Assembly: GCA_963701075.1 (NCBI GenBank)
Contig: OY969559.1
Span: 1,184,577 to 1,248,576 of the forward strand
Reading direction: 5' to 3'
Length of the DNA stretch: 64,000 nucleotides
Source: an uncultured Nitrososphaerota archaeon
GTDB lineage: Archaea > Thermoproteota > Nitrososphaeria > Nitrososphaerales > Nitrosopumilaceae
A model generated the notes under the pieces. That model worked only from the letters and a program-made list of their open reading frames with translations. It did no database searches and was not told the origin of the DNA. This document shows positions 10,189-31,454 of this stretch, in pieces (within the stretch, counting starts at the first letter, position 1; the number at the start of each line of letters is the position of its first letter). The position numbers and the translations under genes were made by a program.

Positions 10189-10190
10189 AA

Positions 10191-11201: not shown

Positions 11202-11261
11202 TAGATAATATACGTTCTTCAGTTTTTTCTTTGATTTGTTTATTTATCCATAATTGGATGT

Positions 11262-13031
11262 TTGACAGGGTGTGGAATGAGTACTAAATTACAGATTCAA
11301 GGTATTCTGATGGTGCTTGTTGCAACATCAGCCGCATTATTGATAACCATTGTATTTTATACGCAGCAAGAAATCAAACAGGCGACAGATGCCATTAAAG
11401 AAGAAAGATTGATAGTCGCAAATCAGATCGCTAATAGATTAGAATTACGTTTTGGTGACGCAATCAAAATTTTGCAACTTACAAGCAAAAATGATCACCT
11501 CGCGAGCCCTCCATTGGCATCTGCAATTGATAACAAATTACACGGCATACCTGAAAATATTGATACAGACAGAAGAAAAATAATGCATGATGTTTTTGTG
11601 ACCTATGGAGGTTTTCAAAACTTGCTTTTCTTACTTCCAAATGGGGATGTATACATCAACGAACCGTTCTTTTTTCAAAATAATATGACGACATCTAATT
11701 TTGCATTTAGAGATTGGTATAAGGATGTTATATCTTCTAACAGTGTCACTGTAAGTCAGGTTATCATTTCAAAATCAAGCATAAAACCAAATGTGGTAAT
11801 CGCAGTACCTGTTTTTTCTCAAAGCGGATCTTTGGAAGGAATTTTAACGGGATCCCTAAGTCTAGATGCAACACAAGAATATCTAAAGAGTTTGCAATCG
11901 TATACTAATGAGAGAATATTGATACTGGATAACGCACAAACTGTAGCTGCAGATTCGGGAGAAATTCTAAAAGGTCAGAAATTTCCGGCCATCACAACAA
12001 TAACTCAAAATGCCATTGTTGGCGAGAACGGAACAGATACTGATACAGTAAATGGTACAAAGATGTTTGTGGTATATAGTCCAGTGAAAATAGGGCAAAC
12101 TACTTGGGCTGTAATTTCTATGCAACCATATGATGATGCATTTCATTCTGTAAATTCATCAATACAAGAGTCATGGATTTTGGTAATCTTAATTATAGTA
12201 ATAACCTCGATCTCAAGCTATTATCTTTATAATATATTTAGAAGACAAGTCAAACTATCAAAAGAACTTGAAAATGCCAACATCGAGTTACACATTCAAT
12301 CTCAAAAATTACATGATGCCGATACTGCAAAGGAGGAATTTGCCACAATGGTCACTCATGAATTAAAAACTCCATTGGTTACTATAAATGGCTACAGTGA
12401 GATGCTAAAAGAAACTGGCATTTTAGGAACTCTAAATAGCGAACAGGAAGACGTGGTAAATAGAATTTATGCAAGTTCCAAAAAACTTGAGAACTTGATC
12501 GGGGACATACTTGTTGCCCAAAAGTTGGATCTGAATAAAATGCACTACAACAAGGTCGATTTTGATGTTGGAGAATTCATGAATGATTTGGCACAAACAT
12601 ACTCTTCTGTTATAAAGGATAAGCAAATTCAATTTAAAAATACAACAACTGAAAGATTAACAATAAACACCGACAAAGATAGGCTATCTCAAGTCCTTGA
12701 CAATCTGATTCGAAATTCAATAGATTTTGTCCCCGCTATAGGCGGAGAAGTTGAGATTTGCGCAAAAAGTAAGAATGAAAATATCGAATTTTTTGTTAAA
12801 GACAATGGTATAGGCATTCCAAAAGACAAACAAGCCAACCTTTTCAAGAAATTCTACCAGATAGACTCGTCTCTGAAAAGACAGCATGGGGGAACAGGCC
12901 TGGGATTGGTAATATGTAAAGGAATTGTAGAAGGTCTGGGAGGTAAAATATGGCTAGAGAGCGAGGCTGGAAAGGGAACTGTTGTCTATTTTTTGATACC
13001 ACAACATGATGAAGCAAATGATGCCAGTTAA
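11262..13031 (+). CDS. Sensor histidine kinase (extracytoplasmic Cache-like domain, TM, HisKA, HATPase_c)
   Basis: 589 aa; H-box FATMVTHELKTPL; N/G1/G2 boxes (DNLIRNSIDF, VKDNGIGIP, GGTGLGL). Confidence 0.85.
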   Translation: MTGCGMSTKLQIQGILMVLVATSAALLITIVFYTQQEIKQATDAIKEERLIVANQIANRLELRFGDAIKILQLTSKNDHLASPPLASAIDNKLHGIPENIDTDRRKIMHDVFVTYGGFQNLLFLLPNGDVYINEPFFFQNNMTTSNFAFRDWYKDVISSNSVTVSQVIISKSSIKPNVVIAVPVFSQSGSLEGILTGSLSLDATQEYLKSLQSYTNERILILDNAQTVAADSGEILKGQKFPAITTITQNAIVGENGTDTDTVNGTKMFVVYSPVKIGQTTWAVISMQPYDDAFHSVNSSIQESWILVILIIVITSISSYYLYNIFRRQVKLSKELENANIELHIQSQKLHDADTAKEEFATMVTHELKTPLVTINGYSEMLKETGILGTLNSEQEDVVNRIYASSKKLENLIGDILVAQKLDLNKMHYNKVDFDVGEFMNDLAQTYSSVIKDKQIQFKNTTTERLTINTDKDRLSQVLDNLIRNSIDFVPAIGGEVEICAKSKNENIEFFVKDNGIGIPKDKQANLFKKFYQIDSSLKRQHGGTGLGLVICKGIVEGLGGKIWLESEAGKGTVVYFLIPQHDEANDAS

Positions 13032-13059
13032 CAAACAGACTATGAGAAGGCAAACTAAT

Positions 13060-13605
13060 TCAAATTAATTTCTCTTTTTCATTGAAATACTTGCTACGAA
13101 GTGCATTGATTTTTGATTTAATCAAGCGATTCTCAAGTATGGCATTCATCTCTTGGAGGCGAGCTTTTTTTGCTGCAATCTCCTCGAGCAGTTCATGTTT
13201 TAGTCTGAGAACCAGATTATTTGTCTCAGAAATCACTTCGTTGATGTCGTAAGGCTTGTAAATTATGGCCGATGCGTCAAGTCCAAGTAATCTTTTCCGC
13301 GTCTCTTCTGTCAAGTCAGCTGTTATCAACATGACTATGGCATTTGGCTCGATCTCCCTTATTTTTTCTAATGTGTAAAACCCATCATGGTTTTCCATCA
13401 TCACATCAAGAAATACGACATCTGGCAAGAGTTTCTTGTACATCTTGATTGCGTTCAATCCATCGTATCCTTTTCCAATTACAGAAATGCCCTTTATTTG
13501 CAAAAATTCAGAAAGAACAGAGACTGTGTCAATATCATCGTCAATTACTATGGCAGTAATTCCTGGCCTGTCCCTCTTTTCACGTGGTTGTGAAAAAATT
13601 TCCAT
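13060..13605 (-). CDS. Response regulator: receiver domain plus C-terminal coiled coil
   Basis: 181 aa; IVIDDD...FLDVMM...K receiver pattern; heptad-rich tail. Confidence 0.75.
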   Translation of the reverse strand: MEIFSQPREKRDRPGITAIVIDDDIDTVSVLSEFLQIKGISVIGKGYDGLNAIKMYKKLLPDVVFLDVMMENHDGFYTLEKIREIEPNAIVMLITADLTEETRKRLLGLDASAIIYKPYDINEVISETNNLVLRLKHELLEEIAAKKARLQEMNAILENRLIKSKINALRSKYFNEKEKLI

Positions 13606-13838
13606 TTATTGCATGAATTAGCAAATATGTATTTTAGATGATTCTTGTGTAGTTTAAACGAACTATTCTTGCTAGCCTAAGAAAAACCCAAAAAAGACAT
13701 CTGTATCGAGGTTGTATCGTGCGTGATAAGTTCAGGTCTGTAAGGATTAGATCTATGAAAGTCTGACATTAGCAGGAATCAAGGCAGGGTGGATAACAAA
13801 TGGATAACCTTAATTCAAAATGCAAGTAAAAAACAATT

Positions 13839-14084
13839 ATGAGAAATTTTGGAACGGTTACTAAAGACCTCATTGCAAGAGTTGTTATTATTACGGCTAT
13901 CTACTCAATAATTTCCTACTTTGTTATACAAAAGTATCAATTAACACCAGATAAACTGACGACAGGTATTCCATTACTCTTTGTTATGTTTGGGATAGTA
14001 ATACTGATTAGCATTCTGTATTCCCTGAGAATGTATCACATATGGAATGGTAAAAATGAGCCGACAGTTGACAAGAAGAAATAG
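13839..14084 (+). CDS. Small membrane protein (two TM helices)
   Basis: 81-aa ORF with two hydrophobic segments. Confidence 0.3.
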   Translation: MRNFGTVTKDLIARVVIITAIYSIISYFVIQKYQLTPDKLTTGIPLLFVMFGIVILISILYSLRMYHIWNGKNEPTVDKKK

Positions 14085-14195
14085 TCAAATAATGTGCTCT
14101 CTCAAGTCGACAGAACCTAATAAAAATAGCCTCTTCCAAGAGAGCATATAAAGACAGCATAAATTTAAGTAACTAACACCTATTGTAAAGTCAAG

Positions 14196-14402
14196 TTGTC
14201 CAGTATCGAATCGCAGTTTTTAGAATCTAGTGATTTTTCAGAATATGAAGGCGAATGGGTGGCTATACTAGATAAAAAAATTGTCGCTCATGGTAAAACA
14301 TTAGCTGAAGTTTACGATAAAGTAGCAGATGCAAAATTGGTTAGAACACCATTATTTCATCGCATACCAAAGAAAGATGAAGTAGAAGCATTCATCCTCT
14401 AA
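14196..14402 (+). CDS. Small DUF5678-like protein
   Basis: 68 aa; GEWVAILDKKIVAHGKTLAEVYDKV resembles the DUF5678 family that is commonly paired with retropepsin-like proteases. Confidence 0.4.
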   Translation: MSSIESQFLESSDFSEYEGEWVAILDKKIVAHGKTLAEVYDKVADAKLVRTPLFHRIPKKDEVEAFIL

Positions 14403-14449
14403 AGAATATTTTAGGCAAATAATATTAAGTAAATTTCTGAACACTATTC

Positions 14450-14971
14450 ATGGTCGATATTGGACGTGGTACTGATAAACTTCATTTTCACTATAAATCA
14501 TTACCACATTGGGATAAGAATGGAAAATTAATTAATATTAAAAAACCAGCAATTGAAATAACTTTTAGAAAATTTTCAGAGAAAAAAAGTCTAGAGAACC
14601 GAGAATTAAGATTAAACGCATTAGTTGATTCTGGTGCGGATAGGTCTTTTTTACCAAAAGAAGTTACGGATGCATTACGTCTTGATATACAAACTACAGA
14701 TCAGAAAATCTTGACCATTGCAGGAGATACAAATGTATTCGAATCAAAAGTATATGCTGAAATTCAACGGTATGAGAAACTACCTATTCCTATAGGAATT
14801 CTCAATGTATTTGTAATGCCACATAATGTTAAAGAAACTCAAGTACCTCATTTTGTGATTTTAGGGAGAAAAGACTTTTTTGAGAAGTTTGAAGTCACTA
14901 TAAACGAATCTGCTCAATACATTACACTAAAAGATATTCATAAAGAAAGAGCCAAACAGACTAGATTCTAA
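14450..14971 (+). CDS. Retropepsin-like (clan AA) aspartic protease
   Basis: 173 aa; LVDSGADRSFLP contains the D(S/T)GA catalytic motif with flanking hydrophobic context. Confidence 0.6.
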   Translation: MVDIGRGTDKLHFHYKSLPHWDKNGKLINIKKPAIEITFRKFSEKKSLENRELRLNALVDSGADRSFLPKEVTDALRLDIQTTDQKILTIAGDTNVFESKVYAEIQRYEKLPIPIGILNVFVMPHNVKETQVPHFVILGRKDFFEKFEVTINESAQYITLKDIHKERAKQTRF

Positions 14972-15478
14972 ATGAAACCCTTATCAAATTAGCCTCTAAA
15001 ACTTAATTTAACTAACATTATCTGAATCGCAGATGTTGCTTTTTGATCTTGGAATCTCCTTACAAATTATCGGATTTGTGATATTAGTGCTCGTAAGTGG
15101 TAGAAGTCCAACTAGTGCTTTTCTATTACTGGAATCTCATAAAGATGGTATTTCGATATTTTTAGGAAACGAATAGTTCCAGACAAATATATCGATAAAT
15201 TATTTTATTCAGCCATTGTGTGGTTATTTCGGGTTTAATTATGCAGTTTTCTTTTCTAAATTAACACCCGAAACTAACAAAGAGAAGATTTAGATCTTAA
15301 CACCCAAGTTCTGAACAGTGTAATATTTCAAAATACTTATTATCTAAATACCAAATTTCAACTGGGTTCAGGCCTGTGAGAGTTTGAACTCAACATAATC
15401 CGAAATTCGTCAATATCCATATAGGAATTTTAATTCTATGTAGATCATACGTATATACTTGTAAAACAACTTAGGGTA

Positions 15479-15976
15479 TTGGCAACTGAAAAGACAGATG
15501 AGATTTCAACAGTAGAGAACATGACAAAACAAGAAATGGCTAAAATAATAAAAACTGTCAAAAGGGAAGATGAATCTTCAGAAAAAGATACTGTTTCAAT
15601 CTGCGATGTCATGAAAAACAACACAACAGAAATAATCGAAAAATTAGAATCAAAATTTCCAACCTACGCACAACTATACGCTGATCTTTACAAAAAATAT
15701 CTGCACACCATAAGTGACCTTTATAGCACATGTTATCTATCTGAAAAAGAATTTTTTGACAAGTTAGGAATGAACAAGCCCGCAATTCAAGCCTTTGATG
15801 CTTATTGGAAATCCATCACAAACATTGTCCTGTCGCAAATTGATATGGGTACAAATTTTGCAAAAATGTACGTACAATTCAGGCTTGATACGATAGACTC
15901 GTATGATAAAGTAGCTCACCTCATGATGGATAATTGTGCAAGATCTTGGAGTCAGTTTAACTCGTACAATAAATAG
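15479..15976 (+). CDS. Hypothetical protein
   Basis: 165-aa ORF preceded by 500-bp non-coding region. Confidence 0.35.
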   Translation: MATEKTDEISTVENMTKQEMAKIIKTVKREDESSEKDTVSICDVMKNNTTEIIEKLESKFPTYAQLYADLYKKYLHTISDLYSTCYLSEKEFFDKLGMNKPAIQAFDAYWKSITNIVLSQIDMGTNFAKMYVQFRLDTIDSYDKVAHLMMDNCARSWSQFNSYNK

Positions 15977-16185: not shown

Positions 16186-16560
16186 TTGATAAACAGAGAG
16201 TCTTTCTCAGACAAGGCAAACTACTGGACTGCGGGTCTTTTCATCTCGGCAGCAACAAACAAGGTGATACAAGAGGATGACACAGTAACGTTGGATTTCA
16301 CTCATCTGGATTCACCTGCTGATTGCATCGGATATCGACTCAAACAGGGCAAAATCGTATTGCAAGGCAATGGAGGGGATTATGTTGGCGAGCTAATGTC
16401 GGGAGGCAAGATCACAATACATGGCAATGCAGGATATTATGTGGGATACAACATGTCAGGAGGGCATATCACAGTCAAAGGCAACGCAGGTGGTCACCTT
16501 GGCACATACATGTCAGGTGGAGTCATCGATATAGAATGCCAAATTGGTTCAATCAGCTGA
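16186..16560 (+). CDS. GXGXG-repeat domain protein (glutamate synthase domain 3 / FwdC-like)
   Basis: 124 aa; repeated G-x-G-x-G pattern (GNGGDYVG, HGNAGYYVG, KGNAGGHLG). Confidence 0.55.
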   Translation: MINRESFSDKANYWTAGLFISAATNKVIQEDDTVTLDFTHLDSPADCIGYRLKQGKIVLQGNGGDYVGELMSGGKITIHGNAGYYVGYNMSGGHITVKGNAGGHLGTYMSGGVIDIECQIGSIS

Positions 16561-16934
16561 ATCTTGCAGAGGCAAAATCTATCACAAAGGAACATTGCTA
16601 GGATGATCTGCTTGTTGAAAAAAGGGGTTTTAAGACAAATTGAGAACTAAGGAGTAATCTCTGATTTGCTTGAGGTACTGCCGGGTGTTTTGGAAAGTTT
16701 TCCTCTTCTACTCCTCATGTAAAAGTATGCGATAGCGGCTGCCACAATTGCAACGCCAGCTATGATTGTGTTTGTAGGAATCATCATTGGTTTACGTCAC
16801 TGTCTCTAATAAACCGGCGTAACGCGACCTTTATGGCCACAAATGAGTTTTGACTCAAGTATGAAAACATCTGTGCTATCTTGGAAGCATTTAGTTGCAA
16901 TTGTTTTAAAATAAAAAAGAAAAGCTCCTTTACA

Positions 16935-17376
16935 CTAGTTTCGTGTAGGTGTGCATGCTTGAATCCAATATTGCAGTACGCCTTGGTTTAGTCCAGCAAA
17001 TGTTTTTACATTCTCGTTGAATGTATTGATCGCTTGCTGAGTAGCATCAATTGCAGCTAGTACTACTTTATTTTGTACTTCCTGGACCTTGATGATTTCT
17101 TCAGTTGTGTCGTTTGCTACCTTTATCATAGCTGCTGGAACATTTGTGTTTATGTTCAGCTTTGGTTGCAAATTCATGATTCATGGAAATGGCTGATTCT
17201 GTTGCCTTTTGCCATGCTGCAACATATGACTTTTGAAGATTTGTTATTGATTGATGATACTGTGGTATTGTTTTTTCTACCTCATCAAAAAATCTGTTTG
17301 CGTTGTGCTTGTAAACTGCGTGGATTTCTTTTGATTCTGTATGGAACTCTTTTGGTTCCGGTGCTAATTTACTCAT
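16935..17376 (-). pseudogene. Phasin-like/coiled-coil protein gene read as two overlapping ORFs (17101-17376 and 16935-17177) that join into one reading frame if a 1-nt frameshift near 17175 is corrected
   Basis: Frame A ends ...SMNHEFATK, frame B continues LNINTNVPAAMIKVANDTTEEII; both protein-like. Confidence 0.35.
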
Positions 17377-17445: not shown

Positions 17446-17712
17446 AATAATCGTAAGAATTGAAACCGCAATTGACCAAAACCATGGTTTCCATGATGTC
17501 GCAAAAACAGTGTAAATTTATTCAACTGTGCTTCTATGTTGCGGAAAACTTTCGCAGTGTCCTGTTGTACGCAACACCAAATCTGTGTGCCTCATCTCTT
17601 GCATATTGGAGAACCTTTAGCGCAGAATTATTTTTTGGCAAGACAATCGGGCTTTTTAGGTTTGGATGGTAGATCTCTTCGTTCTCTTTCAGCTAGAGAT
17701 ACAACCGGTATG

Positions 17713-19122
17713 CTAACTCCGGCAGTTTTTAGCGCCCCAAGTGCGGCATTTCAGCTGACCCCTTCCTCCGTCTATGAGTATCAAGTCAGGCATCTTCGAG
17801 TCTTCCTGCCGCAATCTCAGGTATCTCCTTTTTACCACCTCATTTATCATTGCAAAATCATCTCTTCCATGCACTGTCTTGATTCTAAATTTTCTATACT
17901 CTGACTTTGCTGGCTTGCCGTCTACAAGGCACGACATTGAACCCACTGCATAGTCTGCTCCATGATTTGAAATGTCAAAGCATTCTATGGTTCTTGGGAT
18001 GTGCTCTAGTTTTAATTTCTCTTGAAGCTCAACCACGGCAGGGTCTGCGCCCTTTGACAGCAAGAGATCAATATTTTTCATTACTAGTCTTATCATCTCT
18101 TTTCGTTTTCCGGCGGCTGGTACCATTATATTGACCTTGAACCCTGCAGCGCGAGAAAATATCTCTTCGAGAATATCTTTTTCAGCTGGCATCTGGCTTG
18201 TCACTATGAACTTTGGAACAGGATTTGAAGAATAGTATTGTGATAGAAAACTTGAAAATGAATTGTCCCCTACCAAGTCAAATGAAAACGTGTTTCTGTC
18301 TTTTATCACGCCGCGAGTCTGCCTAAAACTCATGACATGTGCAGTCTGGTCCCTTGTCTTGATGCCAAAATATTCCTCGTCTGAGCCATGCACTGACTCC
18401 ATCTTTTGCTTGGTTTGAAGATTCTGAAGCCTCTGAAGTGTTTCGCGAATCTCCTTTGCTCGCTCATACTGTAAACTGGATGAGGCCTCCCTCATCTCTT
18501 CTTCAAGTTTTGCAACAAAATCCTCAAGCTTTCGCTTTCCTTTGAGAATGGATTCAAGCTCCAAGATATGTTCTGGGTATTGCTTTTGTGCGTCCTTGAA
18601 CTGGCATGGTGCCTCGCAGTTGCCTAGGTGATACTCTAGGCACGCCTCTTTTGGAAGCCTTTTGCATATCCTAATCTTGAATGTCTTTCTCAAAAGTCCG
18701 ATTGAGAGCATCTTTGAGCTTCCATGGGTAAATGGTCCGTATACGCGTCCTCCTCCAAGAAACTCTCCAGTCCTTGTCCTTCTTGCCACCATTAGGCGCG
18801 GAAACGCTTCGTTTGTAATCCTGAGATATGTGTACCGCTGCTGGTCTTTTAGCTCTATGTTGTAGGGAGGTCTGTAGCGCTTGATCATGTTGGATTCAAG
18901 CAAGAACGCCTCTTCTTCATTGTCGGTCAGCACAAATTCGATATCTCTTATTTTTTCAACAAGTTTCTGGGTCTTGTAGTTCTGGTTCTTGACAAAATAA
19001 GACCTGACGCGGTTCTTCAAGTTCTTTGCCTTTCCTATATACAGAATGTTGCCCTTGCCATCTTTCATGATATAGATGCCATAGTGAGACGGAATGTTCA
19101 GCGATGAAATATCAAGAGCCAT
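17713..19122 (-). CDS. uvrC: Excinuclease ABC subunit C (UvrC); intact for 469 aa, C-terminal ~60 aa continue in two other frames down to ~17534 (two frameshifts)
   Basis: GIY-YIG N-terminus ([28 protein letters not shown]), UvrBC-interaction and endonuclease domain ([11 protein letters not shown]); downstream frames read [21 protein letters not shown] and EEIYHPNLKSPIVLPKNNSALKVLQYARDEAHRFGVAYNR, matching UvrC consensus. Confidence 0.8.
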
Positions 19123-20797
19123 TTTTCAAGATTCGCTTTAGGTACTGACCTGTGTAGCTTCTTGGGTTTTGAGAAACCTGCTCAGGTGTTCCAGTTGCAA
19201 CAATTGTCCCGCCGCCGTCTCCTCCTTCTGGGCCCAAGTCAATTATCCAGTCTGAATTTTTGATAACATCCATGTTGTGCTCAATGATTATTATGGTATT
19301 TCCAAGCTTTACCAAACGGTTCAAGACTTCAAGTAATCTTTGAACATCTGCAAAATGCAGTCCAGTTGTTGGCTCGTCTAGTATGTAGACCGTTCTTCCC
19401 GTATCGCGCTTTGACAGCTCTGACGCAAGTTTGACACGCTGAGCCTCCCCGCCAGACAATGTAGTAGCCGCCTGGCCTAGCTTGATGTATCCAAGACCCA
19501 CGTCAAAAACTGTCTGAAGCTTTCTCTGGATCGAAGGAATGTTTTTGAAAAATTCTAATGCCTCTTCTACTGTCATTGATAACACATCTGAAATGTTCTT
19601 GTCCTTGTAGTGCACTGCTAGTGTCTCAGAGTTGTATCTTTTCCCCTTGCATTCATCGCATACCACGTAAACGTCTGATAGAAACTGCATCTCTATTTTT
19701 TTGACCCCGTCTCCTTCACATGCAAAACATCTGCCGTCTGCCACATTAAATGAAAACTGTCCAGGGGCATATCCTCGCTCTTTTGATAATTCCGTCTCAG
19801 AGTACAGTTCCCTGATTGGTGTGAATGCGCCGATATACGTGGCAGGATTTGAGCGTGGGGTGCGCCCTATTGGGGACTGGTCTATTCCTATCACTTTGTC
19901 AATCTCGTCCAATCCTGATATTGCCTTGTGCCTTCCTGGCCTGTCGATGGAACCATAGATATCTTTGGCAAGTGCCTTGTAGAGAATATCGTTTACAAGA
20001 GTAGATTTTCCCGAGCCTGACACGCCTGTCACTGTAATCATCATCCCTAGGGGAAACGAGACATCGATACTTTTGAGATTGTTCTCTGCTGCGCCTTTTA
20101 CTATCATCTCTCCTTTTTTTGCATATGTTCTTTTTTCAAATTTTATTGCATCGTGATTTTTAAGATACTGTCCGGTTACAGACTCGACACTTTTTAAAAT
20201 GTCATGTATTGTTCCTTCAAAGACTACGTTTCCACCATGTACTCCCGCGCCAGGTCCCAAGTCGATAATCCAGTCAGAACTTCGCATCACCTCCTCGTCA
20301 TGCTCTACGACAAGTATTGTGTTTCCAAGGTCTCGAAGCTTTGTAAGCGTCTTGATCAATTTTGCATTATCTCTTTGGTGTAGCCCAATTGTTGGCTCAT
20401 CGAGCACATAGAGTACTCCTGTAAGGTTGGAGCCGATCTGAGTTGCAAGCCTGATTCTTTGCGCTTCTCCGCCAGACAGGGTTGAGCTAACCCTATTTAG
20501 CGTAAGATAGTTCAGGCCTACGTTTCTTAGAAACTCAAGCCTGGAAAGAATTTCTTTTAGGATTGACTTTGCAATGTATCTTTCAGTCTCGCTTAGCTGG
20601 AGATTTTTGAAAAACTCGTAACATGAATCAATTGATAAATCACAGACATCCATTATAGACAATGAACTAATCTCAACTGCAAGTGATTCATCCTTTAGCC
20701 TTCTTCCCTTGCATGTGTTGCACGGAGTCTCTCGCATGAACTTGCTTAGCTCCTCTCTTTTTGACTCTGAATCGGTCTCTGCGAAATTTTTCTGCAA
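19112..20797 (-). CDS. uvrA: UvrA, C-terminal ~560 aa (second ABC module); fragment of a frameshifted uvrA
   Basis: [12 protein letters not shown], zinc-finger cysteines, Walker [10 protein letters not shown] and second [12 protein letters not shown] signature. Confidence 0.85.
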
Positions 20798-21731
20798 GAC
20801 TTGGTATTACGCCATGAAAAGTGTTGGTATACTCCCATCTTGAATCAGTTGATTGCGATTCATATGAAAACTTGACAGCTTCACGGCTCCCATACAGGAT
20901 AACCTCGAGTTGCTTTTGTGTCATCTTGTTAATTGGAGTCATTAGATCAAAGCCATATTTTTTTCCGACATCTCGAAGTGTCTGTCTCCTAAATGACGAA
21001 AATCTTCCTGACCATGGAATTATGGCCCCGTCTAGGATGGATTTTGTCTTGTCAGGAATTAGCAGATCAGGCTCAAACTCCATCTTGACGCCTAGCCCGT
21101 GGCATGTCTTGCATGCCCCAAATGGCGAGTTGAAAGAAAACCCTCTTGGTTCAAGCTCGCCTATTGATATTCCGCAAAATGGACATGCATTGTTCTGAGA
21201 ATAGACCTTTTCTTCAGTATCTGCAACCATGACATCGCCTTTTCCTGCCTTGAGCGCAGTCTGGATGGATTCATAGAGCCTGCTTTTTTCTTCCCAGGCT
21301 GCCTTGAGTCTGTCAACGACGATTTCTATATTGTGCCACTTTTGCTTGTCAAGTGTTGGAAACTCGCCTGTAATTTCTATTATTTCTCCGTCTACTCGAA
21401 TTCTGGAATATCCCTGCTTTTTTACCTCTTCGAATATTTTTTCATATGTTCCCTTCTTTCTTCTAACAAGTGGTGCAAGTATCAGTATTTTTTTTCCTTC
21501 TGATTCTTTGAGAATTGATTCACAGATTGATTCTATTGACTGGTTTGATATCTTGCGCGCACATCTTGGACAGTGCGGCGTTCCAATTCTTGCATATAGT
21601 AGTCTGAGATAATCGTAAATCTCTGTTATTGTTCCAACAGTTGACCGCGGGTTTTTGCTTGTAGTTTTTTGCTGAATCGATATTGCAGGAGATAACCCTT
21701 CAATTGAGTCAACATCTGGCTTATTCATCAT
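20688..21731 (-). CDS. uvrA: UvrA, residues ~45-390 (N-terminal fragment); overlaps the downstream fragment by 110 nt in another frame
   Basis: [32 protein letters not shown], CPxC zinc modules; the true N-terminus ([48 protein letters not shown]) is encoded at ~21732-21925 but is cut off by a further 1-nt frameshift. Confidence 0.85.
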
Positions 21732-21925
21732 CTCAAGGAACTGTCTTGCGTAAGCTGATAATGACTCGACATATCTTCTCTGCCCTTCTGCATAAATTGT
21801 ATCAAATGCAAGTGTTGATTTTCCAGAGCCTGAAAGTCCCGTAATTACTACAAGTTTATTTTTTGGAATATCAACATTAATGTTTTTTAAATTGTGCTCT
21901 CTTGCACCACGGATGATTCAGCTTG

Positions 21926-22297
21926 TCATTCATTTCTTAACTGTCTCTGTATTTTGGTTAATTTATCGCGGTATTCAATTGCATTCTCAAAGTCCAGATC
22001 TTCTGCATAACGCTTCATGGTGGCCTCTATTTCAATTGCAAGGGTTTGCAAGTCATGTCTTGACATGTGCTTTGTCTCTTCTAGCACTATGGTTTGAGCA
22101 GGTATTGCCTTTACAATAGTAGCAGGCGTGATTCCCATCTTTTTGTTGTATTCTATTTGCCTATTTCTTCTTCTTTCTGTCTCTGTCATGGCAAGCTTCA
22201 TTGACTGGGTAACCTTGTTGGCATACATTATCACAGAGCCGTCTACATTTCTTGCTGCTCTTCCAAATGTCTGAATCAGACTGGTGATGTTTCTCAA
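21926..22297 (-). CDS. uvrB: UvrB C-terminal fragment (helicase motif VI, UVR domain)
   Basis: [34 protein letters not shown] and [16 protein letters not shown] (UVR domain). Confidence 0.85.
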
Positions 22298-22388
22298 AAA
22301 GCCTTCCTTGTCTGCATCAAGTATGGCAACAAGGGATACTTCGGGGATGTCAAGGCCTTCTCGCAGTAGATTTATGCCTACTAAAACG

Positions 22389-23867
22389 TCAAACTCTCCC
22401 AGTCTTCAGCTGTCTTATTATTTCTGTTCTCTGAAGGTTTTCAATCTCTGAATGAAGATATCGCACTTTGACCTTGTTTTTTGATAGGTATTCTGCCAAG
22501 TCTTCTGCCATTCGTTTTGTTAATGTAGTGACAAGTACACGTTGATTTTTATCAACACGTTTTTTTATTTCTAAAATCAAGTCGTCCATCTGACCTTCAG
22601 TCTTTCGTATCTCCACTGTTGGGTCTACCAAGCCTGTCGGTCTGACTAGCTGCTCTACTATGCGGAAACTTTTCTTGCGTTCATAATCTCCTGGAGTTGC
22701 AGAGACAAAGACAGTGTTTTTTACATATTTTTCAAATTCCTCAAACTTTAGAGGTCTGTTGTCAAAAGCGCTGACAAGCCTGAACCCGTAATCTATGAGT
22801 GATTTTTTACGCGTATGGTCGCCGTTGTACATTCCGTGCAATTGCGGCAGCGTTACATGCGATTCATCAACTACAAGTAAAAAATCATCGCCAAAAAAGT
22901 CAAGCAGGCAAAACGGAGGTTCCCCTTCCAGTCTACCATCAAAATGTCTTGAATAATTCTCGATTCCAGAGCAATAACCAAGCTCCTCTATCATTTCTAA
23001 ATCATATTTTGTTCTCATCTCAAGTCGCTGCCTTTCAAGCTCGTGCAGCTGTGGCAGCCTCTCTTTTAGTTCATTTCTTATTGACTCGACTGCTTTTTTT
23101 CTGACATCTGACGCAACAAGGTAGTGTTTTGCCGGATAAATCTTGATTTGTGATACCTGTTTCTTCTCTTTGAGTGATATAGGGTCACAAATTGATATTT
23201 TTTCAACATCGTCTCCAAACATGGAAATTCTTACAACTGAATCAGAATATGCCGGAATGATGTCAACTGTATCACCCTTTATTCTAAATCTGCCTGGCAA
23301 CAACTCTGTATCATTTCTGTCATATCTTGCATTGACAAGTTTCTTGATCAAAGATCTTCGCCCAATCTCTGCCCCTTTTTCTATCGTGATTGACATGAGC
23401 TCCCACTCGCGAGGCGAGCCAAGAGAGTATATGCATGAGACAGTCGCAACCACTATGGTTGGCTCCCCTGAAAGCAGCATGGCTGTTGCCTCTAGTCTCA
23501 TTTTTTCGATTTTTTCGTTTATTTGCGTGTCTTTTTCTATGTACGTGTCAGTCTGAGGTATGTAGCTTTCCGGCTGGTAGTAATCATAATAGCTGACAAA
23601 ATATCCGACATTGTTTTTTGGAAAAAATTGCTTTAGTTCAGAATAAAGCTGAGCCGCAAGCGTCTTGTTGTGTGATATCACAAGTGTGTTTTTTCCAGTC
23701 CTTTGAATGGCATTGGCAACAGTAAACGTCTTGCCGCTTCCTGTCACTCCAAGCAGCGTCTGGATCTTTTTTCCCCTGATTCCTTCTACTAGCGCTTCTA
23801 TGGCCTGGGGCTGGTCTCCTGTGGGCACAAAGTCTGATACTATCTCAAAGGTAGGATTTTCAAGCAA
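22389..23867 (-). CDS. uvrB: UvrB N-terminal 492 aa; continues into 21926-22297 frame after a 1-nt insertion near 22388
   Basis: Walker [11 protein letters not shown], beta-hairpin region, DESH box; reading through ...IIRQL then [39 protein letters not shown] in the shifted frame. Confidence 0.85.
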
Positions 23868-24596: not shown

Positions 24597-24728
24597 AGAT
24601 CAGTGATTCCACCTTTTGATATTTTTGCGTATGCTTTAAGATTTTGTTAACTCTTCGGTTGTTTACATAACCTAGATTATAACAATATAACCAAGTCTTT
24701 TTCTTGTAGACAAATCCTCATCTGATAA

Positions 24729-25187
24729 TTGTACGCCATAAAATCCATAAAACAGACTTATTCAAATGCTGAACTTGGCACCATGATGGATACATTCAAG
24801 GAGATGGTAAACCATTGTATCAGGATTGGGCTTGAGAACAATGTTTCCACGCTGAAGAAATTCTCGTCAATGTTTTATCATGAGCTTCAAAGCTACCAAA
24901 TCCAGTCAAAATACAAACTTACTGCAATGTCACAGGCCTGCGGAAGGCTCTCACAGATGAAGCAAGAGATCAGGAAGGGGAGGAGCGCAAAGTCTCCTTA
25001 TGTAAGAAGACCATACTTGGTGTCATGTTATGGATTCAAGGTTAACGGAATGTTGTTGTCAATTCCAACAGGAAACAGAAACTACATCAATGTTATACTA
25101 AATGAGCATACCATGAAAAAGCTCGCAGAGGAGGGTGTCAGGCCAAGGTGTTTACAATCACCCCAAACTCATTATCCATTTCAGTGA
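24729..25187 (+). CDS. tnpB: TnpB (OrfB) N-terminal fragment
   Basis: 152 aa; typical TnpB N-terminal region; frame overlaps the next ORF by 40 nt. Confidence 0.6.
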   Translation: MYAIKSIKQTYSNAELGTMMDTFKEMVNHCIRIGLENNVSTLKKFSSMFYHELQSYQIQSKYKLTAMSQACGRLSQMKQEIRKGRSAKSPYVRRPYLVSCYGFKVNGMLLSIPTGNRNYINVILNEHTMKKLAEEGVRPRCLQSPQTHYPFQ

Positions 25188-25894
25188 GAAAAGAAGTAGA
25201 GGAGATTAGATGCAATAACGTAATCGGAATAGACAGAAATTTAAGAAATGTCACCATCTCTACACAGTCAGGACCGGTCATGTACAAGACCGGAAAGTTA
25301 CTGTCAATAAAGGAAAATTCCCAGTTTGTAAGAGCGTCATTTAGAAGACACGACGTGAGAGTCAAAAACAAGTTCTTTGCACCGAGAAGGAACAGGCAGT
25401 CAAGACGGATACAACAGTATCTGCATAAAATATCGAGGGATATTGTGAGTAGAGCAAAAGAGTCAAAGGCAATCATTGCCTTTGAGGATCTAAAAGGAAT
25501 TCGCAAGTTGTATCAAAAGGGGAACGGCCAAGGAAAGAAATTCAGACGAAGATTAAACTCCTGGTCATTTTACGAGTTGCAGAGACAGATTGTATACAAG
25601 GCATCATGGGAGGGAATTCCAGTCAGATTCGTAGATCCAAAACGCACCAGCCAACTCTGTCCAATATGCGGAGATAGAATCCAAGAGGACAAGTTTCACA
25701 GACGAAAATCATGGTGCAGTAATTGTAGGAAATCAATTGACCGCGATGTTGTCGCGGCACTGAACATATCTTACAAGGGGTGGAGTAGGTTTTGCCATCC
25801 TAGAGGGCTTTCAGAGGAAGTGATGAGGGGGAATGTGGAAAACTTTCAGCCACTAATCCTCAGAGTAGATGGAAGCAAGTTGATCTCGGTATGA
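25148..25894 (+). CDS. tnpB: TnpB (OrfB) C-terminal fragment: RuvC-I (VIGIDRN), RuvC-II (IAFEDL), zinc finger (CPICG...CSNC), RuvC-III (DRDVVAALNI)
   Basis: 248 aa; motif order diagnostic of TnpB/Cas12-like RuvC nucleases; frameshift near 25140-25187 splits the gene. Confidence 0.75.
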   Translation: MFTITPNSLSISVRKEVEEIRCNNVIGIDRNLRNVTISTQSGPVMYKTGKLLSIKENSQFVRASFRRHDVRVKNKFFAPRRNRQSRRIQQYLHKISRDIVSRAKESKAIIAFEDLKGIRKLYQKGNGQGKKFRRRLNSWSFYELQRQIVYKASWEGIPVRFVDPKRTSQLCPICGDRIQEDKFHRRKSWCSNCRKSIDRDVVAALNISYKGWSRFCHPRGLSEEVMRGNVENFQPLILRVDGSKLISV

Positions 25895-25969
25895 ATGTTT
25901 TATGCAAACAACCGAAGAATTAACAGAACCTGCTTTAATAGTTAAATTGGGGTATGTATACTGTCAAAT

Positions 25970-26380
25970 ATGAGATCTGGCTGGATTGGATCTACTTTTG
26001 GGATCTTCATAATAATTGGTACATCGGTAGCCGGATTTTCAAGTTTTGTATACCGCCTGTTTGGAGATACAATTCCAACTGTGTTTTGGGTGCATCTCAA
26101 AGAAGTTGGTGCTGCCTTGATCATGTTGGCAGTCTTTGCATTTGTGGTTGCATGGATACTTAGGGCCAAACCTCACAAAAAGCCTCAGCACTATTTTGTC
26201 AAGGTATTTGATCTTTTTGGACAAGAGTTCAAGATTGAAGGTATGAGAACTGAATTTAAGACACACGATGTAGCGTGGAGCTTTATGAAACACTACAAAA
26301 AGTCTTACCCGCTATACAACTTTGCACTAGTCTCTGATCTGCCAAATTCTGACAAGATGACAATTTTTAGGTATCTTTAG
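25970..26380 (+). CDS. Hypothetical membrane protein (two TM helices)
   Basis: 136-aa ORF with hydrophobic segments. Confidence 0.3.
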   Translation: MRSGWIGSTFGIFIIIGTSVAGFSSFVYRLFGDTIPTVFWVHLKEVGAALIMLAVFAFVVAWILRAKPHKKPQHYFVKVFDLFGQEFKIEGMRTEFKTHDVAWSFMKHYKKSYPLYNFALVSDLPNSDKMTIFRYL

Positions 26381-26389
26381 AAAAATAAC

Positions 26390-27475
26390 TTATTTTCTTG
26401 GGTTGTTTTGATCTTTAAAGTATGGCAGTACTGTAGAGCCAAACTTGTCTATTGAGCCAAAGTACCCAGAACCCCAGAACCTGACAATAAAATGGTTAAC
26501 TCCAGCTTTTATGAATCTCTCAAAGACTGGTATGATATCATCTGGAGTGCCGATGCCAATTGATGAGCGCGCTACCTTGTCAGGAATTGTCTGTGCGGCC
26601 TCTCTCATCTTTACTATCCATTCTTGATTTGACATTGAATATTCTGTGAAATATTTCTTAAAGTCAAAACCTGCAACATCTTCGACTCCGTGCACCTTGA
26701 GAACTTCGGGTTTGAACAAACTAACCTTTACGGCATTTTTCATCTTTGCCCATGCTACTTCTGTATCGTCTGCAAAGTAAACGTCAATGTCTACGCCAAA
26801 CTGAAAGTTTGAACCGTCTCTGCCGTTTTCCTTCATTGATTGTTTAATTGACTTGACATGTTCCTCGTAAAGTTCTGGAGTGTATCCTATTGGAATCCAT
26901 CCATCGCCATATTTTCCACACAATGCCAGAGTTCTAGGTGCACCTGCTGCCATGTATATTGGAGGATGTGGTTTTCTAATTGGGGCTGCCTGTAGACATG
27001 CATTGTCAAGCTCATAATATTCTCCTTTGAAACTTACTCGGTGATCAGGCGATGATTCGAAAAGTAATTTGATTACTTGAAGCTGCTCTTCAAATCTTCC
27101 AACTGGCTTGTCCCATTGTATCTTGAACTCTTTGATATTTTGGGCCTCACCTGCACCAATGCCAAGAGTTCCTCTTCCATGTGAGACTCTGTCAAGGGTA
27201 ATACTAGCTAGAGCAATATTTGATGGATGTCGTCTTACTGCATCTGTCACACAAGTTCCAAGCTCAACTTTGTTTGTAATAGAAGCTATGGCAGAAAGCA
27301 TAACCCATGGGTCATTTACAATTGCATGATTCCATTGGGGGACATTACTGTGGTCCATGTACCAAATCGAATCGTACCCTACCTTATCAGCCAAAACGCA
27401 GGCTGTTAAGATTTGATCCTCTGTTAGCCCAAGACGAGCAACATTCAACCCCTGTTGAATTCCAAACTTGATCAT
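26390..27475 (-). CDS. Luciferase-like monooxygenase family oxidoreductase (probably F420-dependent)
   Basis: 361 aa; LLM TIM-barrel pattern (DSIWYMDH, GIGAGEAQN). Confidence 0.65.
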   Translation of the reverse strand: MIKFGIQQGLNVARLGLTEDQILTACVLADKVGYDSIWYMDHSNVPQWNHAIVNDPWVMLSAIASITNKVELGTCVTDAVRRHPSNIALASITLDRVSHGRGTLGIGAGEAQNIKEFKIQWDKPVGRFEEQLQVIKLLFESSPDHRVSFKGEYYELDNACLQAAPIRKPHPPIYMAAGAPRTLALCGKYGDGWIPIGYTPELYEEHVKSIKQSMKENGRDGSNFQFGVDIDVYFADDTEVAWAKMKNAVKVSLFKPEVLKVHGVEDVAGFDFKKYFTEYSMSNQEWIVKMREAAQTIPDKVARSSIGIGTPDDIIPVFERFIKAGVNHFIVRFWGSGYFGSIDKFGSTVLPYFKDQNNPRK

Positions 27476-27605
27476 ATTATACGAAACCCTGTCGCAATTT
27501 GTTCATTTGAAAGCGGTATTTAAGTTTAGTAAGAGACGCGGTAATCGTCGTTTGAAGTGATAAAGCGGCAGTAAAATCTGTCAAGATGTTAATTGTAGTC
27601 AAATC

Positions 27606-28943
27606 TTATAGCTGAACCCTATAGTAATCCCATCTTTCAGGATCAAACTGCCTTACAAACTCGATCTTCTCGTTGCGCTTTTTCCTTTCTTGTATTACGT
27701 CCCTTAGGGCAAAGCTTGAGAGGTATTTGTATCCCTTGGATTGAGCCTGCATTAAAAATAACTGGCGCATCTCTCGTCCGCCCTTTAACCCCCAATACCC
27801 CATCTTCAATGCAATGGGCTCTAAAAATATTGTATCCCCTTTTCCCCAATGTGGATCATTGATATCAGAACGGAGTTTGTAATTTTCTAGTGACGTTCCC
27901 TTTACAAAACCCACTATCGGACCGTTTCCATCTCCAATCCTTAATGTGTTGAGCAACATTTTTGGATCCCGTACAGAATCTGCAAAACCTGTTCGCAGAA
28001 ATTGGAGAGGATATGGCAACTCTTGGAAAATTCCAAAGAGTGTATTGATAAATTCGTCTTTTTGCCGTGTCGTGATAGGGTCAATAGAGGTTACTAGCTG
28101 CACCTTGTCGTAAATCACCGCTGCTTGATTTTGTATTTCATTTTCTCTAAGCCTCATGAATCCTAATACGTTATCCATAAATGACTTGCGCATAGTTCTT
28201 GGCAACGCTTCTAAAATTTGGTTGCACATCTCGGATTCGTTGTTTAGGAGATCTTCAAAAAATGCAACAGCACGGATTGCTATTAAATTGGGGTGCCATG
28301 CCAAAGAGTGTGCATTCTTCTTTGCCATCTCAAGTGCATATGAAAAATCACCCATGGCATAACCGCCAATTCTATCTGATACAGAAAGAAACCACCCAAG
28401 TTTATTGTAATATTCAGTCTTTTGTGGGTTATCCCTTGCACTGTCTGACACAGAATAAAAATGCTCAATTAACAATTCTGCTTTTTCTTTATTCTCTCCC
28501 GTCCAAGGATATGTCGTTCTCAGTATCATTGCTGATACGATGTTGGGATCAATATTGGATTCTTTTAGTAACGACTCTAATGTTTTGTCAGTACTGACAA
28601 AATTGGCCGCATCAGGCTCATGTGGCTTGTCAACTCTTTTCTGAGGGTCATAATCATGAAACAAAGCCGCTACAAAGAGATATTTTGCATCGTCCTTTGT
28701 AATGAGATTCTGTTGGCTCTGCCACTGCGCTGCCAAGAGTGTGACATATGTGACTTCTAATTCGTGGATTATGTTGTGGTACCCATAATAATCAATACCC
28801 AGTCCTTTCTGATGGAACAGGTCTATTGTATAATCAAGTATCTTGGAATAACAAGAGGACTCAAGCCCGCACTGGTTTAAGGTCTCTAGTATTTTATCTC
28901 TGAGATTGCTGGTGCTGTATATCTCTTGCATTGGAACTTTCAC
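27606..28943 (-). CDS. HD-domain-like hypothetical protein
   Basis: 445 aa; H...HD...D arrangement (YHNIIHELEV ... ALFHDYD). Confidence 0.4.
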   Translation of the reverse strand: MKVPMQEIYSTSNLRDKILETLNQCGLESSCYSKILDYTIDLFHQKGLGIDYYGYHNIIHELEVTYVTLLAAQWQSQQNLITKDDAKYLFVAALFHDYDPQKRVDKPHEPDAANFVSTDKTLESLLKESNIDPNIVSAMILRTTYPWTGENKEKAELLIEHFYSVSDSARDNPQKTEYYNKLGWFLSVSDRIGGYAMGDFSYALEMAKKNAHSLAWHPNLIAIRAVAFFEDLLNNESEMCNQILEALPRTMRKSFMDNVLGFMRLRENEIQNQAAVIYDKVQLVTSIDPITTRQKDEFINTLFGIFQELPYPLQFLRTGFADSVRDPKMLLNTLRIGDGNGPIVGFVKGTSLENYKLRSDINDPHWGKGDTIFLEPIALKMGYWGLKGGREMRQLFLMQAQSKGYKYLSSFALRDVIQERKKRNEKIEFVRQFDPERWDYYRVQL

Positions 28944-29009
28944 TTGTATGGTACAGGTACCATAAAAGCTTAATTGGAATTAGAAAAGGAATCAGACGCT
29001 GAAGTTTTC

Positions 29010-29954
29010 TTACATCTTGCCGTTGACGATATCTTGCAAGAGGTGTACGATGTCTTCTTTAGTTACAGGTATTGGATTTGGATCAAGATGACCTTTGTCA
29101 GTCATGATTACATCTGCAGCTTGATCAACAGGCGTCTTGAGAGCAAGTTTGTCAAACTTTAGCTTCTCTATTACCTCCTTGAATTTGTCATAGAATATTG
29201 ATTTGTTAAATCTATGTGCTACTGTAGTGCAAGATGATAACGAGTATCCGTGGGGCACTCCCTCATTTGAAAATGCGTATGATAATGCATGCCCTAATGT
29301 TGTTGATGCATTGCCAAAACCAATTCCAGACAGCATGGAACCAAATGGATAATTCTCAGGCTTGTTGTTCATTATTGCGTCGTACAATATATCAAAAGCA
29401 GACTTGCACATCATTTTTGTAAACTCATTTCCTCTCTTGCTGTCATAGCCCTCTGTTGCTTGAGCGCATGCATCGCATACTGAATTCTTGACTATGGCCT
29501 CTGGTGTTCCATCCATAAAGTAAGAATCTATAACTGCAACATCGGCAAGAAATCTTTCATCTTGCAAGAGTTTCTTTTTTCCTTCGAATTTGAGTACACA
29601 GTATGTTGTCATTTCTGCGCCTGTGCCAAAAGTTGTCGGTATGAGTATCTTTGGTATCTTCATCTCCATGCCTGCATATTTTGCAACATCAAGTGAGACT
29701 CCACCGCCTAAGCCAATTATCACCGAGGGATTTTTTGGTTTGAACTCTGCGATAACTTTGTTTACTGTTTCAATAGAAGGCTCTGGTTCCACCTTATCGT
29801 ATAACATGTAATCTTGAATCTTCATCCTGGCAAGCCATTTCTTTGATACGTCAGGAGGAGCTGTTGTAACAACAAGGGCGTTTTTTGGATATTGTGTATC
29901 TGACAATGCGTCTTTGCCATAGTTGATTATCTTTGGAATTCTTACGGTATTCAT
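29010..29954 (-). CDS. Iron-containing alcohol dehydrogenase / dehydroquinate-synthase-like fold (glycerol-1-phosphate dehydrogenase-like)
   Basis: 314 aa; GLGGGVSLDVAKY glycine-rich NAD(P)-binding motif. Confidence 0.5.
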   Translation of the reverse strand: MNTVRIPKIINYGKDALSDTQYPKNALVVTTAPPDVSKKWLARMKIQDYMLYDKVEPEPSIETVNKVIAEFKPKNPSVIIGLGGGVSLDVAKYAGMEMKIPKILIPTTFGTGAEMTTYCVLKFEGKKKLLQDERFLADVAVIDSYFMDGTPEAIVKNSVCDACAQATEGYDSKRGNEFTKMMCKSAFDILYDAIMNNKPENYPFGSMLSGIGFGNASTTLGHALSYAFSNEGVPHGYSLSSCTTVAHRFNKSIFYDKFKEVIEKLKFDKLALKTPVDQAADVIMTDKGHLDPNPIPVTKEDIVHLLQDIVNGKM

Positions 29955-30057
29955 AGAAAAATAAGATTTGCAATTATTATTATACTATTGCTTGTTCTGG
30001 CATTTTAAAACACAGAACAGAACGTAGGCTTGTATCCAAATAATTGGGAACAAAGGT

Positions 30058-30405
30058 GTGATTTTTATATCTAAAAACCAGAAGGGTGGTAAGAAAATGA
30101 ATCCAAAAAACTCTGATGAAACAATTTCCAAAGTAGAATCCATGATTCGTGTGCTCTCTAAAGCCACGCCACGCGGTGACATCCTAGATCAGAATGATGT
30201 CAAAGCTCTCAATCAAGTAGACTCTGAGGATCAACCCAAGTTGGCTGACAGGCTGGAGGATATGATGGTACTTCTAAAGGATGATCCAGATAACAAGAGA
30301 AAGATACTAGAGATTCATGATACCACCATGGACGAGTTTGGCCATGTTAGACCAATTCATGATGCCATGGATTCGATAAAGGCGTATTTTCTCAACAAAA
30401 AGTAG
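30058..30405 (+). CDS. Hypothetical protein
   Basis: 115-aa ORF. Confidence 0.3.
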   Translation: MIFISKNQKGGKKMNPKNSDETISKVESMIRVLSKATPRGDILDQNDVKALNQVDSEDQPKLADRLEDMMVLLKDDPDNKRKILEIHDTTMDEFGHVRPIHDAMDSIKAYFLNKK

Positions 30406-30406
30406 G

Positions 30407-31444: not shown

Positions 31445-31454
31445 AATTTTTCTC

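Follow-up and report, generated by a model that had tools for sequence, protein, structure and literature searches.

Bacterial-type nucleotide excision repair (NER) is encoded in Nitrosotalea and the Nitrosopumilaceae by a canonical UvrABC operon, in which uvrB, uvrA and uvrC follow each other in this order with overlapping stop and start codons and whose products measure about 647, 939 and 528 aa in eight relatives. Loss of uvrABC has been reported for some ammonia-oxidising archaeal lineages. We discuss here a uvrB-uvrA-uvrC locus with interrupted reading frames, located in a stretch of 64,000 nucleotides (hereafter the window) from Nitrosotalea, an ammonia-oxidising archaeon. The operon is almost certainly intact in this Nitrosotalea population, its five frameshifts being consensus errors of long-read assembly.

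The Nitrosopumilaceae possess an AG(4mC)T and G(6mA)TC methylome (M.NspBD3I/II, M.Nca01I/II, M.TarMY3I/II; PMC11033074, PMC8919816, PMC6329791). The motif pair AGCT (m4C) and GATC (m6A) is documented in Nitrosoarchaeum BD3, Nitrosomarinus catalina SPOT01 and thaumarchaeon MY3 (PMC11033074), and 82-91% of AGCT is modified in marine Thaumarchaeota MAGs (PMC8919816). Base modification induces strand-specific errors in nanopore sequences, which may survive polishing (PMC10687267, PMC11610573 and PMC11610603), and a G-to-A bias of nanopore sequencing has been described at methylated motifs (bioRxiv 10.64898/2026.01.14.699587).

The uvr locus and its five inserted bases

The locus spans positions 23867-17534 on the minus strand, in the order uvrB-uvrA-uvrC. 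As given, uvrB (21926..23867) is read as pieces of 492 and 123 aa, uvrA (19112..21933) as three pieces and uvrC (17534..19122) as 469 aa followed by two short frames. The overlap of uvrA is 8 nt at the uvrB stop and 11 nt at the uvrC start. Curated equivalog models place these pieces in the UvrB, UvrA and UvrC families: NCBIfam assigns the 492-aa and 123-aa pieces to UvrB (NF003673; 756 bits for the former, cut-off 743), the 347-aa and 561-aa pieces to UvrA (NF001503) and the 469-aa piece to UvrC (TIGR00194, 421 bits, cut-off 285), and a 35-aa piece is recognized by other NCBIfam UvrC models. Against TIGR00630, the UvrA pieces score 364 and 898 bits (cut-off 730). Each gene is a single ORF (about 647, 940 and 528 aa) in eight related Nitrosotalea-group loci, and UvrB amino-acid identity is 77-95% among the matches listed (80 loci). 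An IS/TnpB element is found at 24640-25930, about 0.8 kb upstream of uvrB. A megablast search of the uvr locus against a plasmid collection returned no match.

Alignment to the eight related loci revealed exactly five +1 insertions, whose precise positions were set by near-identical contigs: 22407 in uvrB, 21919 and 20799 in uvrA, and 17752 and 17690 in uvrC. The earlier note had rightly described the locus as complete and broken by frameshifts; the breaks it had put at 17540, 17740, 20690-20800, 21870 and 22388 have to be moved to these positions. All five bases are in or adjoin an AGCT, four of them changing AGCT-AA into AGCTGAA and one changing AG-CT into AGTCT. The supernumerary base of uvrB, previously taken for an A, is the G of CAGCT[G]AAGACTG on the minus strand (TT[C]AGCT on the plus strand); it is missing from L081, L082, L107-L111 and eight more distant relatives. 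The break in the N-terminal part of uvrA had been misplaced and corresponds to AAGCT[G]AATC: at 21919 the minus strand reads AAGCT[G]AATCATC, the base is lacking in 10 near-identical loci, and relatives have AAGCT-AATC or AAGTT-AAT. The second uvrA insertion, at 20799, falls inside AGCT (CCAAG[T]CTTGCAG on the minus strand, CAAG[A]CTTGG on the plus strand) and is lacking in 11 near-identical loci, one of them Logan contig L101. In uvrC, the minus strand reads GGTCAGCT[G]AAATGCC at 17752 and CTCTAGCT[G]AAAGAGAA at 17690, both bases being without counterpart in the near-identical loci. Homopolymer indels, suspected earlier as the cause, are not involved: 0/5 sites are homopolymeric and the errors are linked to AGCT, in line with base modification.

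Once the five bases are deleted, all three frames are restored exactly, as ORFs identical to intact alleles and free of any further lesion: 646 aa for uvrB without base 22407, 939 aa for uvrA without 21919 and 20799, and 528 aa for uvrC without 17752 and 17690. The corrected UvrB is identical to that of L081, the corrected UvrA to that of the same locus (P0134), with its exact sequence in five datasets, and the corrected UvrC to P0121, a sequence known from four datasets; the latter two are proteins named UvrA and UvrC by NCBI. Beyond the insertions, the locus differs from intact alleles by one synonymous change, GATC to AATC at 23139 (plus strand, inside uvrB; Ile ATC to ATT). Relieved of its five spurious bases, the operon matches the gene lengths of the relatives and shows no remaining difference from the canonical UvrABC operon.

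Near-identical contigs from other datasets

Contigs 99.95% identical to the window were recovered from at least six other datasets: GCA_049677745.1, GCA_049279315.1, ENA ERZ25039544, ENA ERZ25039501 and, among Logan assemblies, SRR28061178, SRR27973124 and ERR10755947. As they come from other samples, they strictly show that the genes are intact in the population, not in the cells of this particular sample. They encode a UvrB of 646/647 aa, a UvrA of 939 aa and a UvrC of 528 aa, except for the 944-aa UvrA of ERZ25039501, where a private AGCT insertion lies near the 3' end of uvrA. None of the five insertions was seen in the near-identical loci, of which 7 to 11 cover each site. A cluster look-up found the broken 469-aa and 492-aa products on one contig only each, of 1,915,938 nt, and an exact-sequence look-up of encoding contigs did not find the broken UvrB and UvrC products. 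The comparison with sister genomes proposed by the earlier note yields near-identical contigs and eight relatives in which the insertions are absent and the genes intact. The SRR Logan contigs are without AGCT changes and the ERR10755947 and ERR11593882 Logan contigs have some, while two NCBI MAGs have no indel at the motif, their sole difference there being AGCT-to-AGCC. Hints of a nanopore assembly are the 'contig_N' names of the sister long contigs and the size of the window's own contig, 1.9 Mb.

Motif-linked discrepancies across the window

Over the 62,908 bases compared with near-identical contigs, the window departs from them at 20 positions, 19 of which are at AGCT or GATC; counted with 1 nt on either side, these motifs make up 3.8% of the sequence (P about 2e-26). 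They are the same two motifs that are methylated in the Nitrosopumilaceae; in this Nitrosotalea, we infer methylation from the error pattern. The differences of the GATC to AATC type are at 23139, 43935 and 50825.

Damage is not confined to uvr as had been implied, since one-base AGCT insertions break six further genes. On the minus strand, just outside uvr, AAAGCT[G]AACAT at 17157 splits a 146-aa gene (16935-17376) into ORFs of 80 and 91 aa. The others are on the plus strand: at 16554, CAAT[C]AGCTGAA shortens a GXGXG-motif protein (16186-16606) from 139 to 124 aa; at 1891, AG[T]CT, common to the window and long contig L089, reduces a FolD-like gene from 289 to 281 aa; at 50901, TT[C]AGCT reduces a 509-aa ORF (486 aa as called in L087) to 415 aa; at 53420, AT[C]AGCT reduces a phage-integrase-family gene from 387 to 368 aa; and at 54961, AG[A]CT divides a 326-aa DHH/DHHA1 protein into ORFs of 142 and 182 aa. 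This last insertion is common to the three long contigs (the window, L102 and L103) and is absent from L087 (GCA_049279315.1). The ORFs of 589-951 aa elsewhere in the window are intact, as reported earlier.

The uvr locus collects five errors mainly because it is unusually rich in AGCT: it contains 32 of the window's 183 sites within 10% of its length, and hits per site (5/32 in uvr versus 11/151 in the rest of the window, p = 0.16) are not significantly different. These rates lend little weight to a specially bad uvr stretch resulting, for example, from a single-read gap fill. An early reading of the damage as local to uvr had come from L002 (86-88% identical), against which the window shows no frameshifting indels at AGCT sites over 25931-35200; it was abandoned since the 99.95% identical contigs display AGCT errors window-wide. 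A global conversion of AGCTAA into AGCTGAA was likewise rejected: AGCTGAA is not enriched (14 in the window versus 13.5 expected by chance) and 24 AGCTAA have been left unconverted, including three within uvr on the coding strand. At any one site, the error occurs with a certain probability.

Recurrence in other long contigs and strand asymmetry

Errors of the same classes, private to each contig, occur in other long contigs at different AGCT/GATC sites, corresponding to window positions 1651, 2092, 16394, 59353, 59682 and 59909 for ERZ25039544, and 5335, 10332-3 and 19157 for ERZ25039501. In L022, a long-read MAG of another Nitrosotalea-group species, uvr is frameshifted twice, by AGCT[G]AA and by T[C]AGCT; the label of this MAG, MFD00031, suggests that it originates from the Microflora Danica project, whose long-read MAGs are nanopore-only and were assembled with Flye and one Medaka round (PMC12313526).

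The insertions are markedly asymmetric. On the plus strand of the window, C insertions affect 8/27 WTAGCT sites versus 0/25 AGCTAW sites (p = 0.004). In the two other long contigs, whose orientation is opposite to the window as deduced from record ranges, the inserted form is again T[C]AGCT when each contig is read on its plus strand. That insertions are oriented by the strand of the contig in which they lie speaks for a software origin and not for a biological one.

Origin of the frameshifts

AGCT and GATC are probably methylated in this organism, judging from the error pattern and from its relatives, and the assembly was most probably obtained by nanopore sequencing. The organism would methylate AGCT (AG4mCT) and GATC (G6mATC), as its Nitrosopumilaceae relatives do, and the modified bases would distort the signal and lead to strand-specific miscalls, presumably at the basecalling or polishing step. 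Such miscalls would comprise an extra base after AGCT and before A (AGCTAA to AGCTGAA), an extra base within the motif (AGCT to AGTCT or AGACT) and substitutions (AGCT to AGTT, GATC to AATC), part of which would outlast polishing. What is expected of modification errors is found here: discrepancies cluster on short motifs that are methylated in the clade, the same classes recur at further motif copies in ERZ25039544, ERZ25039501 and L022, and strand and orientation are asymmetric. Pfam annotations of the called genes reveal no DNA methyltransferase gene in the window. Like the nanopore errors described in PMC10687267, PMC11610573, PMC11610603 and bioRxiv 10.64898/2026.01.14.699587, those of the window recur at a short motif that is methylated in the published cases, are strand-specific, persist through consensus building and polishing with Medaka, do not appear in data that are independent or short-read and include G-to-A at GATC. 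They differ in being mostly one-base insertions at the 4mC-type AGCT, which create frameshifts, whereas the published errors are mostly substitutions. For one-base insertions at 4mC motifs, the demonstration is the empirical one given here.

The earlier note had left the choice between a low-quality stretch and a decaying operon. The former part of that choice stands, the insertions being motif-linked and absent elsewhere. Genuine pseudogenisation would make this a UV-sensitive or mutator lineage, for instance under relaxed selection in dark soil or sediment; three adjacent genes with five frameshifts do look decayed, the IS/TnpB element upstream of uvrB could be seen in the same light, and the uvrABC losses reported in some ammonia-oxidising archaea would match the phenotype that had been proposed. 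Such a loss, however, would leave its trace in independent genomes, with genes missing or degraded, whereas the window genes are perfect apart from motif-linked bases on one contig. No excess of substitutions, deletions or nonsense codons accompanies the lesions, the corrected proteins match intact alleles at 100% identity, the five lesions sit on one 4-nt motif, the same type of lesion breaks unrelated genes and no independent dataset reproduces them. Once a first gene was dead, there would be no selection for four more hits, and five neutral hits versus zero neutral substitutions are not credible; we regard decay as very improbable. No more probable is an in-vivo mutational process at methylated or restricted AGCT, through faulty repair after AGCT-specific restriction cleavage or nicking or through polymerase errors at 4mC, in which case the insertions would be real alleles, NER and several other genes would be knocked out in the clone, and different cells or populations would bear different AGCT frameshifts. 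The extreme motif specificity and the own set of AGCT changes in every long contig would suit it. Yet the insertions follow the arbitrary orientation of the contigs, which biology cannot know and which argues against an in-vivo origin. Changes are present in the long contigs and in the ERR10755947 and ERR11593882 Logan contigs, whereas the SRR Logan contigs have none and no motif indel is seen in the two NCBI MAGs. The process would also require many conserved genes (FolD, DHH phosphoesterase, UvrABC) to be lost together with essentially no ordinary SNPs, in a clonal background, and GATC is affected too, by another class of change (G to A) that fits the known nanopore bias.

Programmed recoding, by +1 ribosomal frameshifting or transcriptional slippage at AGCUGAA, is the least probable of all and can practically be dismissed. 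The heptamer common to four sites superficially resembles a signal, but its registers vary (CAG-CTG-A at three sites, GCT-GAA at 17690), the fifth site has another sequence, the extra base is missing from the homologues of every relative as well as of the same population, and the heptamer, no commoner than chance, also occurs at 18181-18187 in unbroken uvrC where no frame change is needed. Quasi-palindrome correction was considered as well, CAGCTG being created at two sites; the other sites form no palindrome and the insertion does not occur elsewhere in the same population.

Consequences for archaeal genomes

With the frameshifts attributed to consensus errors, the UvrABC system of this Nitrosotalea appears normal and intact and holds no biological novelty. 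The case calls for caution with long-read-only genomes of ammonia-oxidising archaea, which bear motif-linked false frameshifts, about 11 in these 64 kb. The AGCT-rich uvrA, uvrB and uvrC are struck repeatedly, and uvr is broken by the same cause in two Nitrosotalea-group species; automated pseudogene calls, completeness estimates and ecological claims of "loss of UV repair" are therefore at risk. The error pattern may also serve as an indirect read-out, suggesting that the AGCT/GATC methylome of the Nitrosopumilaceae extends to this lineage.

The interrupted uvr operon and its intact alleles

The host of the window is a Nitrosotalea-like ammonia-oxidising archaeon, and the nearest species-level relatives of its UvrB are found in Nitrosotalea MAGs and Ca. 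Nitrosotalea sp. TS (95% amino-acid identity). The genes uvrB (23867-21926), uvrA (21933-19112) and uvrC (19122-17534) form a tight minus-strand operon in which stop and start codons overlap. Each uvr fragment matched UvrB, UvrA or UvrC in NCBIfam, and at eight related loci these proteins are encoded by single ORFs of ~647, ~940 and ~528 aa, respectively. Multiple alignment against the eight loci revealed exactly five extra bases in the uvr genes of the window and no further frame-disturbing change. Four of the insertions turn the AGCT-AA of the relatives into AGCTGAA, the fifth falls within AGCT itself (AAG-CTT to AAGTCTT) and none of the five lies in a homopolymer context. The earlier note had described these genes as complete in content and interrupted, which the NCBIfam matches and the alignment bear out with corrected coordinates.

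Contigs 99.95% identical to the window were retrieved by searching for exact copies of the protein of an intact neighbouring gene and then by additional look-ups. They comprise two NCBI MAGs (GCA_049677745.1 and GCA_049279315.1), two long ENA contigs (ERZ25039544 contig_46686, 1.475 Mb; ERZ25039501 contig_59954, 0.79 Mb) and several Logan read-set assemblies, and share with the window a TnpB-type IS element adjoining the uvr operon. Their UvrB comprises 646/647 aa, their UvrA 939 aa and their UvrC 528 aa, except in ERZ25039501, where a private insertion at an AGCT brings UvrA to 944 aa. Depending on the uvr site, 7 to 11 near-identical loci lack the extra base and none carries it. Once the five bases are removed, the window encodes UvrB, UvrA and UvrC in three ORFs that match those of these contigs exactly. 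The broken 469-aa and 492-aa products were each found on one contig only, 1,915,938 nt in length and presumably the source of the window.

Differences concentrate at AGCT and GATC

The near-identical contigs span 62,908 of the 64,000 bases of the window, over which 20 places differ. Eleven are one-base insertions in or beside AGCT (1891, 16554, 17157, 17690, 17752, 20799, 21919, 22407, 50901, 53420 and 54961), three are AGCT read as AGTT (583, 7312 and 10311), two are two-base scrambles of AGCT (29698-9 and 44734-5), three are GATC read as AATC (23139, 43935 and 50825) and one is an ordinary-looking SNP (55257). AGCT or GATC with 1 nt on either side makes up 3.8% of the window and accommodates 19 of the 20 differences (P ~2e-26). 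The suspicion of low-quality sequence raised in the earlier note was thus well founded, its homopolymer explanation was not: the errors are linked to motifs. The sole homopolymer discrepancy among the main assemblies across ~63 kb is at 9672, where the window and two compared loci (L088 and L091) carry A8 and two others (L089 and L090) A9.

The window shows no enrichment of AGCTGAA (14 observed versus 13.5 expected), and AGCTAA is still present 24 times, so that no blanket conversion of AGCTAA to AGCTGAA has taken place. The uvr locus contains 32 of the 183 AGCT sites of the window and 8 of the 27 most susceptible WTAGCT sites; its hit rate per AGCT site (5/32) does not differ significantly from that of the remaining window (11/151, p = 0.16).

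All six insertions outside uvr damage genes as well. They shorten a FolD-like gene from 289 to 281 aa, a GXGXG-motif protein from 139 to 124 aa, an integrase-family gene from 387 to 368 aa and a 509-aa ORF to 415 aa, and divide a 146-aa gene in two and a 326-aa DHH/DHHA1 protein into 142 and 182 aa. The last of these, AG[A]CT at 54961 (inserted base in brackets), is identical in the window and in the long contigs L102 and L103, and is absent only from GCA_049279315.1, which encodes a single 326-aa DHH/DHHA1 protein of normal architecture. Since the same insertion arose in three independent long contigs, the error appears close to deterministic at some AGCT instances.

The same errors in other assemblies

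Each long contig carries private AGCT/GATC errors of the same classes at other sites. In window coordinates, ERZ25039544 has AGCT[G]AA at 16394 and 59353, AG[A]CT at 59909 and GATC read as GATT at 2092 and 59682, while ERZ25039501 has AGCT[G]AA at 5335 and AAGC[T]TAC at 19157, within uvrA. A MAG of another Nitrosotalea-group species (L022, MFD00031.bin.1.112, 1.27-Mb contig), which serves as GTDB species representative, shows two frameshifts in uvrA and uvrC (L022 positions 13271 and 15617), each AGCT[G]AA or T[C]AGCT; a false signal of broken uvr genes is therefore already present in public reference genomes. The Microflora Danica long-read MAGs were assembled from nanopore reads alone, using Flye and a single Medaka round (PMC12313526).

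The Logan contigs of SRR28061178 and SRR27973124 are free of differences linked to AGCT or GATC. AGCT scrambles occur in Logan contigs of ERR10755947 (window 61449-50 and 62339-41) and ERR11593882 (window 5198-9), which suggests that these ERR runs are long-read data.

Origin of the insertions

On the plus strand of the window, C insertions affect 8 of 27 WTAGCT and 0 of 25 AGCTAW sites (p = 0.004). According to their record ranges, both other long contigs run opposite to the window, yet T[C]AGCT is again the form of their insertions when each is read along its own plus strand. The orientation bias is complete, and its direction goes with contig orientation in three assemblies. Biology cannot track an arbitrary contig orientation but consensus or polishing can, and a software origin is therefore favoured. 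L022 has one insertion per orientation.

This behaviour contradicts a real mutator targeting AGCT. Two further observations contradict it as well: neither the NCBI MAGs nor the SRR Logan contigs contain such indels, and several conserved genes are broken at once against a background otherwise free of SNPs. The decaying nucleotide excision repair operon, the other alternative of the earlier note, is not supported either, given that the lesions are bound to a motif and confined to one contig, in a locus otherwise identical to intact alleles. Programmed frameshifting at the uvr sites is excluded, since the same population lacks the extra base and the frame register differs among the sites.

Base modification offers a candidate cause for such sequencing errors. 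Methylomes of related ammonia oxidisers, such as Nitrosoarchaeum BD3, Nitrosomarinus catalina SPOT01 and thaumarchaeon MY3, consist of exactly AGCT (m4C) and GATC (m6A) (PMC11033074), and 82-91% of AGCT is modified in marine Thaumarchaeota MAGs (PMC8919816). Base modifications provoke nanopore miscalls that recur and withstand polishing (PMC10687267), these errors being strand-specific (PMC11610603, PMC11610573), and a G-to-A bias has been reported at methylated motifs, GATC and a 4mC motif among them (10.64898/2026.01.14.699587). AGCT and GATC would likewise be methylated in the organism of the window, nanopore sequencing would be the source of its errors and these would become fixed at the consensus or polishing step. 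As biology the finding is of low interest; in practice it teaches that false frameshifts arise in AGCT-rich genes when genomes of ammonia-oxidising archaea are built from long reads alone.

Other elements of the window

An IS-like insertion of ~1.3 kb (24640-25930) is absent from L001 and L002, two relatives 86-88% identical. Its TnpB/Cas12f1-like gene is split into ORFs of 152 aa (24729-25187) and 248 aa (25148-25894); this split is present in every near-identical assembly covering it and is therefore probably real, not an AGCT error. An 8.5-kb low-GC stretch (7458-15957, 32-36% GC) encodes a dCache histidine kinase, response regulators, an M10 peptidase and a HicB-like protein. Present in near-identical contigs and absent from L001, the closest other species, where its flanks are adjacent, it has the appearance of an island specific to the strain or species. 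A defence-like island (38568-54521) groups a 951-aa SIR2_2 protein (41227-44082), an AAA_16 ATPase (44218-45411), an ApeA-NTD/HEPN protein (45747-47201), a MazE-like antitoxin and a phage-type integrase (53357-54521). Only one other contig (GCA_049279315.1) yielded the exact ApeA/HEPN protein, and the island may thus vary within the population.
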